This document shows positions 2,391 to 10,102 of a stretch of 40,469 nt of DNA, one piece after another. Below the pieces are notes generated by a model that was not told the DNA's origin, searched no databases, and saw nothing but the letters and a program-made list of their open reading frames with translations. The stretch comes from a bacterium (GTDB taxonomy: Bacteria; CLD3; SB21): positions 1 through 40,469 of the forward strand of contig JABWCP010000006.1 of the NCBI GenBank assembly GCA_013360215.1. The letters are read 5' to 3'. Each line of letters starts with the position of its first letter. The first letter of the stretch is position 1. The position numbers were made by a program, and so were the translations under genes.

Positions 2391-3773
2391 ATGAACGATC
2401 TCATTATCGCCAAATTTGGCGGTACCAGTATGGGCACAGCCGAAGCGATGCGCCAAAGCGCGCGTATCGTTATTGCCGATAACCGCATACGTGTCGTCGT
2501 GGTGAGCGCCACATCCGGTACGACGAACGCGCTGCTCAAAGTATATCACGATCTATGCGCATGCGACACGGTGTCGGCGGATCAGGCGTTTAAAAAAATT
2601 GAAGACCGGCATCGCACGATGTGCCATGCACTGGAACTTGATTCTTCTGCAGTAGATGAATTGATCGTTGCCGCACAAAATCACATGTCGTTATTTTCTG
2701 CATCGGAAAATCGCGAAGTATGGCTCGATGCATGGCTTTCATTCGGTGAGCGCTTGGCCTCGCGTATATTTGGCAAAATGCTCTTTCATCTCAAAAATAA
2801 TGTCACGGAAGCCGATGCCCGATCATTTATTATTACCGATGAGGTGTTTGGCAAAGCCGAGCCGCAACCGGATCGTATAAAAACTGCGTGCCTGAAAAAA
2901 TTGCTCCCACTGTGCAGTGAACAGATTATTGTGACCCAAGGTTTTATCGGTGCAACGACCGACGGCCGTACGACCACACTGGGGCGCGGCGGTAGCGATT
3001 ATAGCGCGGCATTATTGGGAGAGGCGCTCTCGGCTAAAGAAGTTTTGATTTGGACGGACGTACCGGGGATTTTTACGATGGATCCCAATTTGGTGCCGGC
3101 TGCGCAAACTATTCCTAAAATCAGTTTTTCGGAAGCCGCTGAATTGGCCAATTTTGGCGCTAAAGTTTTACATCCGGCAACGCTGTGGCCCGCTATTCGC
3201 AAAGGCATTCATGTGTTTGTGGGTTCGACATTTGAACCCGAAGCCGGCGGAACGTGGATCGAACCGGATGTCAATGATAAGCCGTTGGTACGTGCCATCG
3301 CGATGCGCAAGCATCAGACGCTTATAACGGTGAGCAGTTTGCGCATGCTCAATACGCACGGTTTTCTTGCCAAAATGTTCGGCGTGCTGGCCGATCATAA
3401 ACTCAGCGTTGATCTTGTGACGACCAGCGAAGTCAGCGTGGCGCTTACGATAGACGGCACGAGCCTGGGTTCGTCCGGTGAAAAAATTTCCGAAAAACAA
3501 GAGTTGCTCCAGGATCTTCGCCGGTTTGCGGATGTCGCGATCGAGGAAAACCTGACGCTGATCGCACTGGTCGGAAACAATCTGCAACAAACACCCGGTA
3601 TTGCGGCGCGCACCTTTGACGCGATCGCCGGTCTTAATGTGCGTTTGATTTGTCAGGGTGCGAGTTCTTATAACATGTGCTTTCTGATGCATCAGTCGGA
3701 TGCGCCACAAGCCGTTAGCGCACTTCACCGTGCGTTTATCGAAAGTGAGGTCGTATGCCTAAAATCAGCCTGA
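2391..3773 (+). CDS. lysC: Aspartate kinase, lysine-sensitive (AKIII-like, two ACT domains)
   Basis: KFGGTS, TTTLGRGGSDYSAA, WTDVPG, ELANFGAKVLHP, SVDLVTTSEVSVALT, LICQGASSYN; downstream of the lysine riboswitch. Confidence 0.96.
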   Translation: MNDLIIAKFGGTSMGTAEAMRQSARIVIADNRIRVVVVSATSGTTNALLKVYHDLCACDTVSADQAFKKIEDRHRTMCHALELDSSAVDELIVAAQNHMSLFSASENREVWLDAWLSFGERLASRIFGKMLFHLKNNVTEADARSFIITDEVFGKAEPQPDRIKTACLKKLLPLCSEQIIVTQGFIGATTDGRTTTLGRGGSDYSAALLGEALSAKEVLIWTDVPGIFTMDPNLVPAAQTIPKISFSEAAELANFGAKVLHPATLWPAIRKGIHVFVGSTFEPEAGGTWIEPDVNDKPLVRAIAMRKHQTLITVSSLRMLNTHGFLAKMFGVLADHKLSVDLVTTSEVSVALTIDGTSLGSSGEKISEKQELLQDLRRFADVAIEENLTLIALVGNNLQQTPGIAARTFDAIAGLNVRLICQGASSYNMCFLMHQSDAPQAVSALHRAFIESEVVCLKSA

Positions 3774-4450
3774 TCGGAAACGGGAAAACCGGCGGCGCCG
3801 TGGAACGCTTATTGCCTCCGGATGAAATCGCGGCGGTTTTTAATTCCAAAAATCCACCGACGGTTGAGGCGTTGAAAAATTCGGACGTGGCGATCGTTTT
3901 TGTGCCCGGTCATGTGTTGAATGACCTGGTACCGGTACTCATTCAGTCCGCCGTTCCCGTCGTGTGTGGCAGCACCGGATTTGAATGGACAATGGACGTG
4001 CGGCGCGCTGTAGAAAACAGCGGCGCCACTTGGATAACGGCGAGCAATTTTAGTATGGGTATGCAATGGATGTTTCGTATGGCGCGCGAATTCAGACGCC
4101 TTGAAAGCCAATGGGCCGGATCGGAAGCGGAGATATTTGAAGTGCATCACATACATAAAAAAGACAAACCCAGCGGCAGTGCGCTCAGTATCCGGCAGCA
4201 TTACGGAAAACAAATACCCATTCACAGCGATCGTACGGGTGACGTTGTCGGATTTCATTCGCTTGTGTTGGCTACCGCATCGGAAAAACTTATGCTCTCA
4301 CATCATGTCGAAGACCGATCCGTATTTGCGCGCGGTGCGATATGGACGGCCCAAAAGCTCATCGAAAAACGATCCCGGCCGCAGGATTATCCCAGCGGTA
4401 TTTTTCCTCTGGAAGATGTGTTTGAAACCTGGCTAAACGAAGGACAATAA
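3755..4450 (+). CDS. dapB: 4-hydroxy-tetrahydrodipicolinate reductase (short form)
   Basis: GNGKTG Rossmann motif, GSTG, ASNFSMG, EVHHIHKKDKPSGSA, R-x-GDVVGFH; overlaps the lysC end by 19 nt. Confidence 0.93.
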   Translation: MPKISLIGNGKTGGAVERLLPPDEIAAVFNSKNPPTVEALKNSDVAIVFVPGHVLNDLVPVLIQSAVPVVCGSTGFEWTMDVRRAVENSGATWITASNFSMGMQWMFRMAREFRRLESQWAGSEAEIFEVHHIHKKDKPSGSALSIRQHYGKQIPIHSDRTGDVVGFHSLVLATASEKLMLSHHVEDRSVFARGAIWTAQKLIEKRSRPQDYPSGIFPLEDVFETWLNEGQ

Positions 4451-4453
4451 GCT

Positions 4454-5344
4454 ATGAAAAATCTGCAATCGGTTACACTATGGACAGCGATCGTGACGCC
4501 GTTTTTGGATAACGGAAAAATTGATTTTTTATCCTTTGAACGGTTATTACGTCGTCAAGAAGCCGCCGGAAACGGTGTGGTGATACTCGGAAGTACGGGC
4601 GAGGGCCTGGCGTTAAACGATGATGAAAAAAGGGAAGTGGTCCGCTTCACCGGAACTTGCAAACTCCATGTCCCGGTTATGGTCGGCGTCGGCGGATTCA
4701 ATTTGGACGCCACCCAGCGGTGGATTGAAGAGAATAATCAGCACGCATTTATCCATGCGTATTTATTGGTCACGCCGCTCTACGCGAAACCCGGTGCACG
4801 GGGCCAATGTAGTTGGTTTGCTGCGCTGCTCGAGGCCTCTCAAAAACCGTGTATGTTATACAATGTGCCATCCCGGACAGGCGTGAAGTTGCATACGTCC
4901 GTCCTGCGTGAACTTAAGGATCATTCGCGATTTTGGGCAGTGAAAGAGGCGAGCGGGAGCGTTACCGAATTTCAGGATTACCGTGAAGCCGCACCGGGTG
5001 TTGCATTCTTTAGCGGGGACGACGGCTTAACACCTTTTTTTGCATCGGCCGGAGCCATGGGGCTGGTCTCTGTGATGAGCAATGTGTGGCCGGAAGCGTC
5101 CGCCGAATTTGTTTACCGTTGTGTGAACCGCGATACCGGCGTATTATTACCGACATGGCGTACGGCTTCCGATGCGATGTTTTTGGCCAGTAATCCTGTA
5201 CCGGCTAAAGCTTTATTGCACGAATTAGGGTTGATCACTTCGGCGTATGTGCGACCGCCGCTTTCTATGGAAGATTTACCGGATCGAAATAAATTAATCA
5301 TGGCGGACAGTCTAGTGCAACGATGGATGGAGCAATACGGATGA
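4454..5344 (+). CDS. dapA: 4-hydroxy-tetrahydrodipicolinate synthase
   Basis: TAIVTPF, GSTGE, LYNVPSRTG, Schiff-base Lys in AVKEASG, SGDD, NPVPAK. Confidence 0.95.
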   Translation: MKNLQSVTLWTAIVTPFLDNGKIDFLSFERLLRRQEAAGNGVVILGSTGEGLALNDDEKREVVRFTGTCKLHVPVMVGVGGFNLDATQRWIEENNQHAFIHAYLLVTPLYAKPGARGQCSWFAALLEASQKPCMLYNVPSRTGVKLHTSVLRELKDHSRFWAVKEASGSVTEFQDYREAAPGVAFFSGDDGLTPFFASAGAMGLVSVMSNVWPEASAEFVYRCVNRDTGVLLPTWRTASDAMFLASNPVPAKALLHELGLITSAYVRPPLSMEDLPDRNKLIMADSLVQRWMEQYG

Positions 5345-6105
5345 AAAACGATTGGAAAAAAATATTAGAACAACTGGAGCGCGGAGAGATACGGGCCGCG
5401 ACGTATGATAACGGTTTTTGGCGGGCTAATGTTGCCGTCAAAGAAGCCATACTATCCGCTTTTCGCGAAGGTAAACTGATCGCCATGAATCGTCCCACCT
5501 ACGGACGCTATGGCGGATTTGTGGATAAAGATTCGATGATTCCCCGAAGCTTTCAGCCGAAACAAAAAATAAGACTCGTGCCCGGCGGTTCATCCGTACG
5601 ACGCGGCGCTTATGTGGCACCCGGTGTTGTGATTATGCCGCCGTCGTATATCAATGTCGGCGCATATATAGACGAACAAACGATGGTGGACAGTCATGTG
5701 TTGGTCGGTTCGTGTGCGCAGGTCGGAAAACGTGTACATCTGAGTGCCGGTGTACAAATCGGCGGCGTATTGGAGCCGGTCGGCAGCGCTCCCGTGGTGA
5801 TCGAAGACGATGCCTTTGTGGGTGCGGACGCGGTGATCGTAGAGGGTATATGTGTCGGTACCGGAGCCGTGATCGCACCCGGTGTGGTCCTTTCGCGCGG
5901 TGTCACGGTGTACGACGCCGTACATGAAAAAGAATTGGGACGTGGCGCCAGAATTCCCGATTTGGCCGTCGTCGTACCCGGTACGCGCCCGCTGGCATCG
6001 ACCTGGGCCAAAGAACGCGGTCTCGCAACGGCTTGTGCGATCATCGTCAAATACCGCGATGCGAAAAGCAACGCCGCGTTACAACTGGAAGAGGCGTTGC
6101 GATGA
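5341..6105 (+). CDS. dapD: Tetrahydrodipicolinate N-succinyltransferase
   Basis: VKEAILSAFR, RLVPGGSSVRRGAYV, MPPSYINVGAYID, VGSCAQVG..VHLSAGVQIGGVLEP hexapeptide repeats. Start set at ATG 5341 from the ATGA overlap with the dapA stop. Confidence 0.95.
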   Translation: MKNDWKKILEQLERGEIRAATYDNGFWRANVAVKEAILSAFREGKLIAMNRPTYGRYGGFVDKDSMIPRSFQPKQKIRLVPGGSSVRRGAYVAPGVVIMPPSYINVGAYIDEQTMVDSHVLVGSCAQVGKRVHLSAGVQIGGVLEPVGSAPVVIEDDAFVGADAVIVEGICVGTGAVIAPGVVLSRGVTVYDAVHEKELGRGARIPDLAVVVPGTRPLASTWAKERGLATACAIIVKYRDAKSNAALQLEEALR

Positions 6106-7307
6106 AGGCATTGACGGCGCATCACCTTACACTGTTACAAGAGGCCGCCGACCGGGTGCGAAAACCTTTTTTTGCCTACGATCTGGATGGTTTACGATCG
6201 CATGCTATGACGTTACGCTCGGAAGGCGTTCGCCTGTGGTACGCTTGTAAAGCCAATCCGCTTTCGGCCATTCTGCGAACAATGGGTGCGTGTTCTTTTT
6301 CGGCGGACGCCGCCAGCCTCGGCGAATTACGGCAAATCCTAAGATATTCGGGCATCGCACCAAAAAACATATTACTTACCGGCCCGGCTAAAGACGAAGC
6401 CTTCGTCACGGAAGCGTTAAATGCCGGCGTTTGTACGATCATCGTAGAGAGCGTGCACCAACTTGAAATGCTGCAGCAGCTTGCATCAACGACCCACAAG
6501 CCTATTCAGGTTCTTCTTCGCCTTCAATTAGACTGGGACGAAAAGAGCGCGAGCGTGCTTGGAGGCAGCGCCATCACCCCGTTTGGATTACCGCCAGAGG
6601 TTTGGCAATCGGTGTCGTGGAAATCGTTTCCTCATTGCAATGTGTTAGGTTGTCATGTTTTCCAATGGAGCAATATTGGCGACATAGAAAAACTCAATTT
6701 TTTTTGGCATCGTATTGCCGTCGAATCTAAGCGCTTGATGCAACATATCGGCAAACCTTTGGAGGTGCTTGACCTTGGGGGTGGACTCGGCGTACCGTAT
6801 CATGCCGATGCGCGCGAATTGCGATGGATTGAAGTGGATGACGCGTTGCAAAAAATTCGCAAGCAATATGAAATACCTTCGATTTGGTTAGAACTCGGAC
6901 GTTATGCCGTAGGCGGTTTCGGAAATTATCTTACACGTGTGATGGATCGTAAGCAGGTACGCGGCACGGAGCTTCTGATTTTAGAAGGCGGTGTCAATCA
7001 CATCGCCCGTCCGGCCCTCACGCATGCCTCGTTTCCTGTACACACTCTGAAGCCTTCGTCTGCGAAAACCCAATCTTTCAAACTGCACGGCCCCTTATGT
7101 ACGGCCTTGGATGATCTGGGTTTGCATGATTTGCCTGAAGATATACAACGCGGCGATTGGCTTGTGTTTCGCCAATGCGGTGCATACGGCTTTACGGAAA
7201 GTATGCCGTACTTTTTGTGCCACGATATTCCTGCAGAGATCATTATAGAAAACAATCAATACGCCGTGGTGCGCGAAAGCGTGCCGGCTGAAAATTGGCT
7301 GAAGTAA
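6102..7307 (+). CDS. lysA: Fold-type III PLP-dependent decarboxylase, LysA-like with divergent active site
   Basis: YACKAN PLP lysine, DLGGGLG, ELGR, GPLCTALD, GAYGF. Start set at ATG 6102 from the ATGA overlap with the dapD stop. The lysA assignment rests on operon context. Confidence 0.8.
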   Translation: MKALTAHHLTLLQEAADRVRKPFFAYDLDGLRSHAMTLRSEGVRLWYACKANPLSAILRTMGACSFSADAASLGELRQILRYSGIAPKNILLTGPAKDEAFVTEALNAGVCTIIVESVHQLEMLQQLASTTHKPIQVLLRLQLDWDEKSASVLGGSAITPFGLPPEVWQSVSWKSFPHCNVLGCHVFQWSNIGDIEKLNFFWHRIAVESKRLMQHIGKPLEVLDLGGGLGVPYHADARELRWIEVDDALQKIRKQYEIPSIWLELGRYAVGGFGNYLTRVMDRKQVRGTELLILEGGVNHIARPALTHASFPVHTLKPSSAKTQSFKLHGPLCTALDDLGLHDLPEDIQRGDWLVFRQCGAYGFTESMPYFLCHDIPAEIIIENNQYAVVRESVPAENWLK

Positions 7308-7308
7308 A

Positions 7309-8415
7309 ATGAAAAACTATACGCACACCACGATACCGGTACGGACTTTGGCATCAGGTCAAATTCTGAATATAGATGTCTTTCGTTTTGAAGGTGATCC
7401 GTCTGTGCCGTCGGCATATATACAATCCGGCATGCACGGTGCGGAATTACAAGGTACCGCCGTGATTGATTTTTTAATTCGTTTTTTTACAGATCACCCG
7501 CCCAAAGGCACGGTGACACTTGTCCCGGCGGCCAACCCTTATGCACTAAATAATAAAACCGGAGAATATACGCAGGGAAGATTTGATCCGACGTATGGCG
7601 ATAATTGGAATCGCCTTTATTGGGATGCTTTGAATAATGAAGACGGCATAGACATAGAAAACTTGGTTAAAACCATTCGCAGCGATGCACAAAATAGTAT
7701 TCAAAAAATTTTACGACATGAGCTGACCCGTAAACTGGAACAGCAACTGCAGAAGCCGCTTACGGAAATGGGTTATGGCCGCAAACTGGCGTTGACTTTA
7801 CAACGTATGGCTGTCGAGGCGGATAGTGTGCTTGACCTTCATTGCGCTTCGCATTCGGTACGCCATGTGTATGCGCCGGAGTATGCGCGTCAAACCGTGA
7901 GGTATTTGAATATTCCGTATGTTTTATTTATTCCCAATCTTTTTGCCGGTGCAATGGATGAAGCGGTATTTTGCCCTTGGTGGACATTAAGTCAAAAGCT
8001 AAGTGTGCCGTGCCCCGTTGAAGCCTATACGATCGAACTCGGCAATCAGGAAGCTTACTCCGCAAAAGATGCGCGCGGCGATGCGATGGGTATTATTAAT
8101 TATTTAGTGCACAGGGGAACATGCGACCCGATAAAACCAAAAGGCCGTGATAGCGCGGAGTCCCTATTCGCATGCCGTTTACAAGACTATAAAACTATCT
8201 ATAGCCCGACCGGAGGATTGTGTGAATTTAGTACGGTTACCGGTGGGATCGTTCCGGCACAGGAGCCGCTGGCGGTTATACTCACTAAAGCGGGGAATGA
8301 AAAAATATCGGTGGCATTACCCTATGATTGTATTCCGATCGTGCAATATTCATCCGCGGCTTTGCATCAAGGGGTCGAATTGCTCAAAGTATTTTCGAAA
8401 TGGGAAGTAATGTGA
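7309..8415 (+). CDS. Succinylglutamate desuccinylase/aspartoacylase (AstE/AspA, M14-type Zn hydrolase) family protein
   Basis: HGAE (HxxE), NWNR, LDLH, TIELG catalytic Glu, and a C-terminal biotinyl/lipoyl-like hairpin region. Starts 1 nt after the lysA stop. Confidence 0.88.
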   Translation: MKNYTHTTIPVRTLASGQILNIDVFRFEGDPSVPSAYIQSGMHGAELQGTAVIDFLIRFFTDHPPKGTVTLVPAANPYALNNKTGEYTQGRFDPTYGDNWNRLYWDALNNEDGIDIENLVKTIRSDAQNSIQKILRHELTRKLEQQLQKPLTEMGYGRKLALTLQRMAVEADSVLDLHCASHSVRHVYAPEYARQTVRYLNIPYVLFIPNLFAGAMDEAVFCPWWTLSQKLSVPCPVEAYTIELGNQEAYSAKDARGDAMGIINYLVHRGTCDPIKPKGRDSAESLFACRLQDYKTIYSPTGGLCEFSTVTGGIVPAQEPLAVILTKAGNEKISVALPYDCIPIVQYSSAALHQGVELLKVFSKWEVM

Positions 8416-8429
8416 ATTCGGGCAACAAT

Positions 8430-8483
8430 AAAAATCCCTCATGAAACAAGGATGATTGGCATGCCTTGATACCGATGAGGGAT
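8430..8483 (-). terminator. Terminator hairpin between the convergent lysine operon and rny
   Basis: ATCCCTCAT (8434-8442)/ATGAGGGAT (8475-8483) with inner CAAGG/CCTTG; followed by a T run on the minus strand. Confidence 0.65.
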
Positions 8484-8509
8484 ATAATCTTTTAAATTGT
8501 CAGAGAATA

Positions 8510-10072
8510 CTATTTTGCAATATCCACGGCACGGTATTCGCGAATCACCGTGATTTTGATCTGTCCGGGATATTCCATTTCGGTTTCGATACGTTGTGCG
8601 ATATCGTCGGCCGTTTGAATAGCGCGGTTATCGTCGAGTGTCGCATAATCAACCATCACACGTATTTCCCGCCCGGCCTGAACGACAAACGCTTCGCGTA
8701 CGCCGTTGAAGCTCATCGCAATTTGTTCCAATTTATTGAGGCGCTTCAGATAATTATTCAGCACTTCTTTTTGTGCGCCCGGACGTTCTTTGCTCAGCAT
8801 ATTCGCCGTGTACAAAATCACGTTGATAGGGTGGGCGATCATCGGGTCGTCATGATGAAATAAAATGGCATTTTGAACGACGGCGTTTTCACCGAATTTA
8901 CGTGCCAATTCGGCGCCCACGACGGCATGCGGTTGATCGGAGCGGTCGGCGGCAAATCCGATATCATGCAGTATCGCAGCGCGTTTGGCAAGTTGTGCGT
9001 CAAAACCTAATTCGGATGCGATCATACCGGCAATGGCGGCCGTTTCCATACTATGTTGCAGGAGATTCTGTCCGTACTGATGACGGTATTTGAGTTTGCC
9101 GAGCAGTTTGACTATTTCGACATGGGCGCCGTGTATACCGACTTCAAAAAGCGCCTGTTCTCCGGTATTCATGATATGTTCATCGAAATCCCGTCTGGCT
9201 TTTTCGTACACATCTTCGATACGACCCGGATGAATACGTCCGTCCGTGATCAGTGCTTCCAACGTTTTTCGTGCGATTTCACGACGGATCGGATCAAATC
9301 CCGAAATCATGATCGTATTGGGCGTATCGTCAATCATGATCTCGCAACCCGTAATGGATTCGAAGGCACGGATATTACGCCCTTCACGCCCGATGATACG
9401 GCCTTTCATTTCATTACTCGGCAGTTTAAATGCAGTAACCGTGCTTTCAGTCACGTGATGCATGGCCGTACGTTGTACGGCTTGCAACATGATATTTTTG
9501 ATCTGATCTTTGGCCTGTATTTGCGCTTGTTCTTTGATATTGCGAATGGATTTGGCCGCATCTTCTTTGGCCTTTTCCAGCATATTGGCCATCAGCACCT
9601 GTTTGGCCTCTTCCGTCGTCATGCGTGCGATGGTTTCCAGTTTATCGTTCTGGTTTTTGATCATCGCTTCAAGTTGTTCGGTTTTTTTGGTGACTTCTTG
9701 AAGTTTTGTCTGCACTTGTTGTTGTTTCTGATCGACGTCTTTTTCTTTACGCGTCAGCAAATCTCCTTTTTGCTCTACGGCACGTTCGCGCTTGAGTAAT
9801 TCATCTTGCTGGTTTTTGATCTGAATGCGCGTGCTTTTGGTTTGCTCGTCAAACTCATGGCGTTTTTTATACCATTCATCGCTGACTTCGATGAGCTTTT
9901 CTTTTTTGAGATTTTCCGCATCGGACTGGGCCGTTTTGCGAATTTGCTGGGCTTCTTCATCGGCTTCGCGAATGCGTTTGGCTACGGCGATTTTAGTCGC
10001 GTACACTTGCCCAAAAAGAAAGGCCGCTACGGCGGATACCAGCGCTGCTAAAATAAAAATAGCAATTTCCAT
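8510..10072 (-). CDS. rny: Ribonuclease Y (HD domain degenerate at one metal ligand)
   Basis: N-terminal TM helix, coiled coil, KH motif MKGRIIGREGRNIR, DGRIHPGRIE, YGQNLLQHS, LHDIG, QAGREIRV, YPGQIKITVIRE. Confidence 0.96.
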   Translation of the reverse strand: MEIAIFILAALVSAVAAFLFGQVYATKIAVAKRIREADEEAQQIRKTAQSDAENLKKEKLIEVSDEWYKKRHEFDEQTKSTRIQIKNQQDELLKRERAVEQKGDLLTRKEKDVDQKQQQVQTKLQEVTKKTEQLEAMIKNQNDKLETIARMTTEEAKQVLMANMLEKAKEDAAKSIRNIKEQAQIQAKDQIKNIMLQAVQRTAMHHVTESTVTAFKLPSNEMKGRIIGREGRNIRAFESITGCEIMIDDTPNTIMISGFDPIRREIARKTLEALITDGRIHPGRIEDVYEKARRDFDEHIMNTGEQALFEVGIHGAHVEIVKLLGKLKYRHQYGQNLLQHSMETAAIAGMIASELGFDAQLAKRAAILHDIGFAADRSDQPHAVVGAELARKFGENAVVQNAILFHHDDPMIAHPINVILYTANMLSKERPGAQKEVLNNYLKRLNKLEQIAMSFNGVREAFVVQAGREIRVMVDYATLDDNRAIQTADDIAQRIETEMEYPGQIKITVIREYRAVDIAK

Positions 10073-10102
10073 GATTGTCTTGATCTAACTCCGTTGATCT
10101 AT

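Follow-up and report, generated by a model that had tools for sequence, protein, structure and literature searches.

To our knowledge, the synthesis of lysine through diaminopimelate (DAP) has four accepted variants, all of which end with DapF (or Ddh) and with the action of LysA on meso-DAP. The window analyzed here is a stretch of 40,469 nucleotides (contig JABWCP010000006.1 of the bacterial assembly GCA_013360215.1). At positions 2391-8415 it carries a lysine operon in which this ending would be replaced by two other enzymes, a LysA-like decarboxylase and a zinc deacylase of the M14 AstE/AspA family. The source genome (G000 in the following) is a 3.72-Mb assembly, 100% complete and 0.53% contaminated, with the window on contig C36. 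The nearest described pathway is the succinylase branch of DAP synthesis: LysC, DapB, DapA and DapD are all recognizable in the operon, the steps to N-succinyl-L,L-DAP are presumably identical, and a lysine riboswitch is present. It differs in that DapE, DapF and canonical LysA are not found in G000, with the decarboxylase and the M14 protein instead, and meso-DAP is probably never made in this route.

Both enzymes have described relatives. Canonical LysA (T. maritima, 2YXX; A. aeolicus, 2P3E) and the window decarboxylase have in common the fold, the Pfam domains, the YACKANP context of the lysine that binds pyridoxal phosphate (PLP), the catalytic Cys and GAY, and the EPGR-type Glu and Arg and the RP arginine of LysA are also kept. 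The window enzyme differs in its lower score on the LysA model (199 vs. 298 bits), a Thr in place of a Glu, a Thr for the Tyr of RPxLY, and a C-terminal ExMxxFxxH. Among solved proteins, the closest in sequence is BtrK (137.9 bits; PDB 7RU7, 2J66), an enzyme of butirosin synthesis named L-glutamyl-[BtrI acyl-carrier protein] decarboxylase, which shares FLxH and the same Thr next to the catalytic Cys (C-T) and acts on an L-centre with an acylated distal end; it differs in having no RP arginine (aligned HHHAAS), a carrier-bound substrate and no link to lysine genes. SbnH (fourth, 111.5 bits) and FigC (53.1 bits) decarboxylate N-citryl diamino acids (PMC7857480). These DAP decarboxylase-like enzymes (SbnH, FigC/FslC) use N-citryl-diaminopropionate or N-citryl-ornithine in pathways re-ordered around a missing precursor (PMC7857480), and differ in belonging to siderophore pathways and other clades and in having citrate as the acyl group. 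Acylated substrates and L-centres thus have precedent in this fold. On the deacylase side, Echvi_1427 serves Bacteroidota as an alternative DapE and can rescue a dapE mutant of E. coli; 4EWT is cited as its relative (PMC13759103). Echvi_1427 offers the example of a non-orthologous desuccinylase in a DapD pathway and has a homologue in relatives of G000 that are without the M14 protein; it differs in being of the M20D and not the M14 type, in not being found in G000, and in its activity on N-succinyl-L,L-DAP in E. coli.

The features of the operon and of its leader are as follows.

2106-2274, + strand, lysine riboswitch aptamer RF00168 (Rfam cmscan 77.2 bits, E 1.3e-18)
2340-2366, + strand, terminator-like hairpin (2340-2360) and T-run, 30 nt before the lysC ATG
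2391-3773, + strand, lysC, aspartokinase of the lysine-sensitive III type (NF006570 562.6 bits, cut-off 455)
3755-4450, + strand, short dapB-like gene, 4-hydroxy-tetrahydrodipicolinate reductase-like, 231 aa (DapB_C 75.1 bits)
4454-5344, + strand, dapA, 4-hydroxy-tetrahydrodipicolinate synthase (TIGR00674 242 bits, cut-off 206)
5341-6105, + strand, dapD, short-type tetrahydrodipicolinate N-succinyltransferase (NF008808 278.7 bits, equivalog cut-off 204)
6102-7307 (ATG 6102), + strand, "C-T type" LysA-like PLP decarboxylase of the alanine-racemase fold (TIGR01048 199.1 bits)
7309-8415, + strand, M14 AstE/AspA-family zinc deacylase (PF24827 77.3 bits, cut-off 25)

The six open reading frames (ORFs) lie on the same strand in the order lysC-dapB-dapA-dapD-decarboxylase-M14. 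The junctions are a 19-nt overlap of lysC and dapB (3755-3773), a 3-nt gap between dapB and dapA, ATGA overlaps of dapA with dapD (5341-5344) and of dapD with the decarboxylase gene (6102-6105), and a 1-nt gap before the M14 gene. The ORFs and all junctions are those first reported in a preliminary description of this DNA, and a scan of ORFs and families agrees with it that the unit holds no dapC, dapE, dapF, dapL, ddh or asd. LysC has the AA_kinase and ACT domains, and DapD the hexapeptide repeats (Hexapep) and THDPS_N_2; dapD can start at ATG 5341, within the overlap with the dapA stop, or at ATG 5323. The dapB-like product reaches 97.1 bits on TIGR00036, under the equivalog cut-off of 122, and retains GNGKTG and EVHHIHKKDKPSGSA (its nucleotide-binding motif and EVHHxxKxDxPSG). 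Though short, it probably works as a DapB.

We propose a single operon of all six genes, repressed by lysine, that would lead from aspartate to L-lysine without meso-DAP. LysC, an Asd encoded on another contig (C28), DapA and the short DapB would give tetrahydrodipicolinate, which DapD would succinylate, and a class-I aminotransferase (C28:95069-96292) would convert the product to N-succinyl-L,L-DAP. The C-T decarboxylase would then remove the carboxylate at the free-amine L-centre to leave N2-succinyl-L-lysine, and the M14 enzyme would hydrolyze the latter to lysine and succinate. Since free DAP would never be formed, neither DapE nor DapF would be needed. Which substrates are used, in which order the last two steps run, which transaminase takes part and whether the acyl group is succinyl or another are all read from sequence and gene context, and the parts of the proposal differ in strength. 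It is highly probable that the end of the pathway is independent of DapF and meso-DAP; that decarboxylation of N-succinyl-L,L-DAP precedes desuccinylation is a more even matter, with about as much to be said on one side as on the other. The same even weight applies to the broader view that this is a widespread variant of the DAP pathway without free DAP, with two undescribed activities, the desuccinylase being the M14 enzyme here and an M20D enzyme in sister genomes. On that view, it would be the sole lysine route in a DapF-less lineage whose MurE lacks the DAP-binding motif, and a lysine-only riboswitch branch, apart from the DAP of the cell wall, in marine Gammaproteobacteria, Bdellovibrionota, Acidobacteriota and Verrucomicrobiota (taxa as named by the sequence sources).

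The decarboxylase has the Pfam domains PF02784 (92.0 bits) and PF00278 (54.8 bits), both above the gathering score, and its score on TIGR01048 is under the equivalog cut-off of 297.9. In the DAP decarboxylase of T. maritima (TmDAPDC), DAP is bound at its distal carboxylate by Arg249 and Arg285 and at its distal amino group by Glu315, a residue of the other subunit that lies beside the catalytic Cys (PMC8277567). ODC and ADC carry Asp at that position, and in TmDAPDC the change E315T abolishes most of the activity on DAP and gives a preference for 2-aminopimelate, which is without that amine (PMC8277567). Alignment with Protein Data Bank (PDB) entries places GPLCTALD of the window enzyme over GPICETGD of A. 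aeolicus LysA, and the distal-amine Glu is a Thr (the C-T motif, GPLC-T). Both distal-carboxylate arginines are kept (ELGR267 and R303-P, in IARP) and are invariant. A C-T motif occurs in all 42 cluster-type decarboxylases (from G000, its relative G005 and 40 gammaproteobacterial loci), in 120/120 top database matches and in the 8/8 "LysA" copies of DapF-less relatives of family f1. A C-E motif is read in 12 of 13 rows of canonical LysA, the thirteenth being a gap from a poorly extracted ORF (seven canonical sequences were also read directly), and five further paralogues in these genomes have C-M or C-N. Two other changes are common to both C-T clades: T, I or V stands in place of the Tyr of RPxLY, and the C-terminal MxSxxNxxR becomes ExMxxFxxH.

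With the Glu lost and the pair of Arg kept, the distal site suits a carboxylate and no longer a free ammonium, and a site without a ligand for ammonium and with ligands for carboxylate is what N-succinyl-DAP would require. The enzyme is not a normal LysA, and we propose it as an N-succinyl-L,L-DAP decarboxylase. Two options had been offered in the preliminary description, an M14 enzyme standing in for DapE, and the inverted order preferred here. The lost distal-amine residue, read together with the E315T result, favors the inverted order; the list was incomplete and missed a third reading, discussed below, in which L,L-DAP itself is decarboxylated. The f1 copies with C-T are found in L127 (8165-9451), L128 (4520-5824) and six more loci (L130-L135). 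Where such copies score above the TIGR01048 cut-off, automatic annotation may have mis-named them as meso-DAP decarboxylases.

The M14 protein matches no NCBIfam model and has no M20 domain. The 21 homologues compared all share residues H43, E46, H178, E243 and E248, among which are candidates for the zinc ligands (HxxE...H) and the catalytic Glu of AstE/AspA. The protein shares the catalytic domain of this family, whose enzymes cleave N-alpha acyl groups off L-amino acids. In PDB, it is much closer to 3LWU (269 bits) and 3FMC (263.7 bits) than to AstE 8EIN (75.3 bits), and its gene has no arginine-catabolic context. With that score and no arginine succinyltransferase (AST) context, we do not file it as an AstE and regard it as a putative desuccinylase of N2-succinyl-L-lysine or N-succinyl-L,L-DAP. 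The two close orthologues with crystal structures, the structural-genomics proteins 3LWU and 3FMC, are deposited under the generic family name only.

Searches of the whole of G000 for dapE, dapF, dapL, ddh and a canonical lysA gave none over cut-off, as had been predicted. DapF is not found with TIGR00652; the Pfam model PF01678 (DAP_epimerase) gives at best 16.1 bits (E 0.026, cut-off 34.7), and a custom hidden Markov model (HMM) of five relatives' DapF genes, which did recover DapF in other loci, gives no match in G000. No match to Ddh is seen in G000, and the best match to DapL is 138.7 bits, below the cut-off of 364.7. With the proteobacterial DapE model (TIGR01246/TIGR01900), the best match in G000 is a dipeptidase, at 61.9 bits for a cut-off of 361.8. 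There are nine M20 matches, of which four are annotated and the other five are weak (21.7-31.9 bits); the top three are the dipeptidase (NF006053, 595.6 bits), an aa-His dipeptidase and PepT, and the fourth, a partial sequence only, matches no family. The only G000 genes that match the LysA model are that of the operon and a 662-aa ORF (107.6 bits). Alanine racemases are represented by one Alr (240.6 bits) and one shorter protein (87.1 bits), which is taken as YggS-like, and thus there is no spare racemase of the DapF2 type in G000.

The same description had expected the transaminase and Asd to come from elsewhere in the genome, and Asd and a candidate transaminase, which is DapC/DapL-like, are encoded on contig C28. 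Asd is of the asd_EA type (C28:217384-218436; TIGR00978 420.8 bits), and the class-I aminotransferase reaches 509.7 bits on NF006756 (cut-off 507) and 501.5 bits on TIGR03540 (cut-off 593). Of the two aminotransferases of class III in G000, one is a lysine 6-transaminase and the other is HemL-like, and neither is ArgD. The former, a lysine-catabolic L-lysine 6-transaminase, is encoded on the contig of the window and outside it (C36:167184-168440; TIGR03251 568 bits, over cut-off).

The comparison set holds 20 genomes of the source phylum, in which the order consists of families f1 and f2, and f3 belongs to the same class. In the other genomes, DapF is present in 0/14 of f1, 0/3 of f2 and 2/2 of f3. 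The M14 gene occurs within the set only in G000 and G005. DapF is missing across the order, also where there is no M14, and its absence is thus no evidence specific to the operon. We rejected it as such, G005 being the only one of 17 DapF-less relatives with M14. The absence of DapE and DapF from the genome, as first suggested, stands; a tie of DapF absence to the operon does not, since the trait is order-wide. The loss of DapF is, judging from its distribution, old and order-wide. Other known solutions are not seen: there is no Ddh over cut-off in 41 genomes, no DapL over cut-off in 21 genomes, and no DapF2-like extra racemase in the family of G000, G000 included.

In the DNPR motif of MurE, Asn and Arg are the residues that bind the DAP carboxylate (PMC3829189). 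MurE reads DD(I/V/P)H at this place in 17/17 DapF-less genomes with MurE, and SDNPR in the 2/2 DapF-bearing ones (f3). The gene of G000 lies outside the window (C39:47328-48869; those of relatives are in L102 and L241-L258), and the best solved relative of its product is the lysine-adding enzyme of T. maritima. With the motif changed where DapF is missing, the order would no longer build meso-DAP into its wall. The motif predicts, we infer, a wall without meso-DAP throughout the DapF-less order, and it suggests that the third residue of the stem peptide changed when DapF was lost.

These data bear on the option of an ordinary succinylase pathway with the M14 enzyme in the role of DapE, a divergent meso-DAP decarboxylase and, in place of DapF, an unrecognized epimerase. 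Non-orthologous replacements of DapE and DapF are known (Echvi_1427 and DapF2; PMC13759103), the C-T enzymes of relatives pass the TIGR01048 cut-off (320-363 bits), and the lysA of relatives adjoins the gene of a conserved 213-aa protein without known family. The change in MurE occurs exactly where DapF is missing and argues that meso-DAP is no longer needed. Since, in addition, G000 and its family show neither DapF nor a DapF2-like racemase nor Ddh, the Glu for the distal amine has been lost and the best solved relative works on an L-centre, we consider this option very unlikely.

The relatives also show what the operon replaced. Eleven f1 genomes carry a DapA of canonical score, a DapD and a "LysA" at separate loci. 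DapD is over cut-off in 10/10 of those searched (303.7-315.5 bits), and "LysA" passes TIGR01048 in 10/11, the sub-cut-off copy of G010 being split across contig ends. In 8/8 f1 relatives examined, lysA stands in a string with the 213-aa protein before it and DUF3467 and Amidohydro_2 (PF04909) after it (as in L127, 6957-10074), and G000 keeps the string minus lysA (C28:268208-269925). The Amidohydro_2 protein was considered as the deacylase of the relatives and rejected, as G000 retains it (83% identity) despite the loss of lysA, so that the distribution is not complementary. An M20D amidohydrolase (~395 aa, PF01546 138-151 bits) is present in 9/11 of the f1 genomes with a C-T "LysA," and the two genomes without a match are 85% and 91% complete. 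In G008, the protein scores 357.9 bits on TIGR01891 and 233.7 bits with PDB 4EWT. It is not found in G000, G005, G002 or G006; G002 and G006 are without lysA, dapA and dapD altogether. The syntenic interval between rmlD and dinG, where the M20D gene is missing, measures 735 nt in G000 vs. 1972 nt in G008. The gene contents indicate that G000 and G005 swapped the family's own lysine genes, the deacylase included, for an operon of the window type. An M14 operon in place of a C-T "LysA" and an M20D enzyme marks M14 as the deacylase of the pathway.

The operon of G005 (L126, 4279-10297; G005:C14), upstream of which no riboswitch was detected, has only 46% (decarboxylase) and 38% (M14) identity to the copies of the window, and G009, a congener of G005, keeps the ancestral lysine gene set. 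The low identity and the old set in G009 point to two separate replacements, and the operon would thus have been gained independently in G000 and G005. A recent transfer from gammaproteobacteria was considered and rejected: a quick M14 tree, in which the placement of the G000 and G005 rows is unsure, sets the two on long separate branches outside the gammaproteobacterial clade.

The cluster is not restricted to this order. A scan of genomes seeded on M14 returned 80 loci, almost all of marine Gammaproteobacteria, of which 40 have the string dapD-decarboxylase-M14 (35 as dapA-dapD-decarboxylase-M14, two with, in addition, a reversed lysC, two led by lysC, and one without dapA). The others are 18 lysC-M14 pairs of Shewanella, two dapA-M14 loci and 20 loci in which the other five genes are all absent. 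Of seven genome loci scanned for a riboswitch, 5/7 have one at the head of the unit, namely four clusters and one lysC-M14 pair of Shewanella; the remaining two are orphan M14 loci. In Shewanella, M14 directly follows lysC (L022, L023, L028 and 15 more, at about 7600-10100), with a riboswitch in L023, the only such locus scanned.

A second scan, of metagenome contigs (80 loci), was seeded on the alignment of C-T decarboxylases in order to remove the bias of seeding on M14. Where at least 800 nt upstream are available, dapD directly precedes the decarboxylase gene (69/72 loci), and where at least 1200 nt downstream are available, M14 directly follows it (55/63). Many of these loci share the order of the window, lysC-dapB-dapA-dapD-decarboxylase-M14, and a riboswitch precedes 8/11 further loci. 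The eight loci without a downstream M14 have a class-III aminotransferase (two), a convergent class-I aminotransferase (one), arginine genes (two), or unrelated genes or none. The class-III genes in the place of M14 (L173, 7326-8627; L208, 7255-8451) are candidates for the missing transaminase of the pathway. The source names of close homologues include Halobacteriovorax, Bacteriovoracaceae, Pseudoalteromonas, Psychrobium, Acidobacteriota and Opitutia. The arrangement dapD-decarboxylase-M14 is not due to chance, and its linkage is tight across phyla. A DapF-like gene is present in 5/162 sources, always on the opposite strand and downstream of M14, never inside the unit; in all five (L177, L178, L190, L192 and L194, one metagenomic lineage) it is convergent to dapB-dapA-dapD-decarboxylase-M14.

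Five M14-bearing genomes were searched further. All have canonical LysA (518-548 bits) and DapE (554-595 bits), and a C-T paralogue is found only in the two that bear the cluster.

Several of these facts, and some given above, weigh against decarboxylation before desuccinylation. M14 orthologues occur without a C-T decarboxylase in 40/80 genome loci. Two Shewanella genomes and one of Ferrimonas have canonical LysA and DapE and no C-T decarboxylase, so that M14 must have another substrate there, for which N-succinyl-L,L-DAP is the obvious candidate. The M20D protein of the relatives resembles 4EWT, the structure cited for Echvi_1427, and Echvi_1427 acts on N-succinyl-L,L-DAP, as it rescues an E. 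coli dapE mutant. The class-I transaminase of C28 passes NF006756, a model named LL-diaminopimelate aminotransferase, which leaves room for a direct reaction of the DapL kind. In the alignment of the C-T clade, no new basic residue stood out that would hold the succinyl carboxylate; N2-succinyl-lysine or a similar metabolite is not documented in the literature searched; and, as said, the absence of DapF is a trait of the whole order and not specific to the operon.

The third reading keeps the canonical order: the M14 enzyme would be an analogue of DapE, releasing L,L-DAP, and the C-T enzyme would be a decarboxylase specific for L,L-DAP that yields L-lysine directly, again with no epimerase. 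The absence of DapF is explained equally well, both distal-carboxylate arginines are retained, N-succinyl-L,L-DAP is the only evident biosynthetic substrate of the M14 protein of Shewanella (where it stands by lysC without a decarboxylase in 18 loci), and the counterpart in relatives is of the Echvi_1427/4EWT kind, a DapE in E. coli. Yet L,L-DAP keeps a free distal amine, and the Glu that would bind it is a Thr in every member of the clade, the matching change in TmDAPDC being the one that abolishes most activity on DAP. Furthermore, in gammaproteobacteria the canonical DapE supplies L,L-DAP, and a near-obligate M14 would be redundant. The dependence is asymmetric: the decarboxylase brings M14 even into genomes that own DapE, and a dedicated deacylase beside the decarboxylase is best explained if the product of the decarboxylase is still acylated. 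We regard the decarboxylation of free L,L-DAP as possible and rather unlikely. With a deacylase active on either succinylated compound, this reading would no longer conflict with the order preferred here, in which N-succinyl-L,L-DAP is decarboxylated first.

The last two genes could also not be a biosynthetic pair, with M14 a hydrolase that, under lysine shortage, salvages lysine from N-acyl-lysine or peptides, or the acyl group or end product could differ. M14 homologues are found beside transporters, a TonB-type receptor and unrelated genes as well, the AstE/AspA family includes deacetylases, going by family names, and control by a riboswitch suits salvage as much as synthesis. Set against this are the conserved order dapD-decarboxylase-M14, with stops and starts that overlap or abut, a DapD that passes the succinyltransferase equivalog cut-off, and a G000 without any other way to complete lysine, which make such a role improbable.

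The riboswitch that the preliminary description had placed at the head of the operon is confirmed: the RF00168 match covers the full model (1-182 of 182), at 77.2 bits vs. a gathering threshold of 30, and lies downstream of the ssb terminator. The hairpin that follows it has an 8-pair stem, TTCCTTAC...GTAAGGAA, and then TTTTTT (a consensus match only). It would act as a transcriptional OFF switch under the control of the riboswitch.

Parts of such operons have been listed before. A 2017 survey gives the riboswitch operons dapA-dapD-lysA-hypothetical1-hypothetical2 in Pseudoalteromonas and lysC-dapB-dapA-dapD-lysA in Bacteriovorax marinus, and in its passages on them comments on operon evolution only (PMC5584792). 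In its passages on lysine, the GapMind work of 2026 presents an M20-type alternative DapE and DapF2, and not the route proposed here (PMC13759103). In a search of full texts (subscription journals and supplements lay outside it), no paper came up in which succinyl-lysine is a precursor of lysine, an enzyme decarboxylates L,L-DAP or succinyl-DAP, or a lysine riboswitch controls an AstE-like enzyme.

G000 is a genome in which the operon of the window appears to be the only way to lysine. If the proposal is true, two enzyme activities would be added, and apparent gaps in lysine synthesis in genomes without DapE and DapF would be explained. Annotations would be corrected (NCBI has "PLP-dependent decarboxylase" and JGI "diaminopimelate decarboxylase," and the copies of relatives pass the LysA cut-off). 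The supply of lysine could be uncoupled from the DAP of the cell wall, the loss of DapF coinciding here with the change in the MurE motif. The choice of DapE and DapF as targets of antibacterials would be affected as well, since organisms with the route would need neither for lysine. The enzymes are soluble, M14 orthologues have structures (3LWU/3FMC), and the cluster is present in cultured strains of Pseudoalteromonas and Photobacterium.

Housekeeping genes flank the operon in the window, with recA and ssb upstream (373-1922) and, as the next gene downstream, rny (8510-10072), which is convergent to it.

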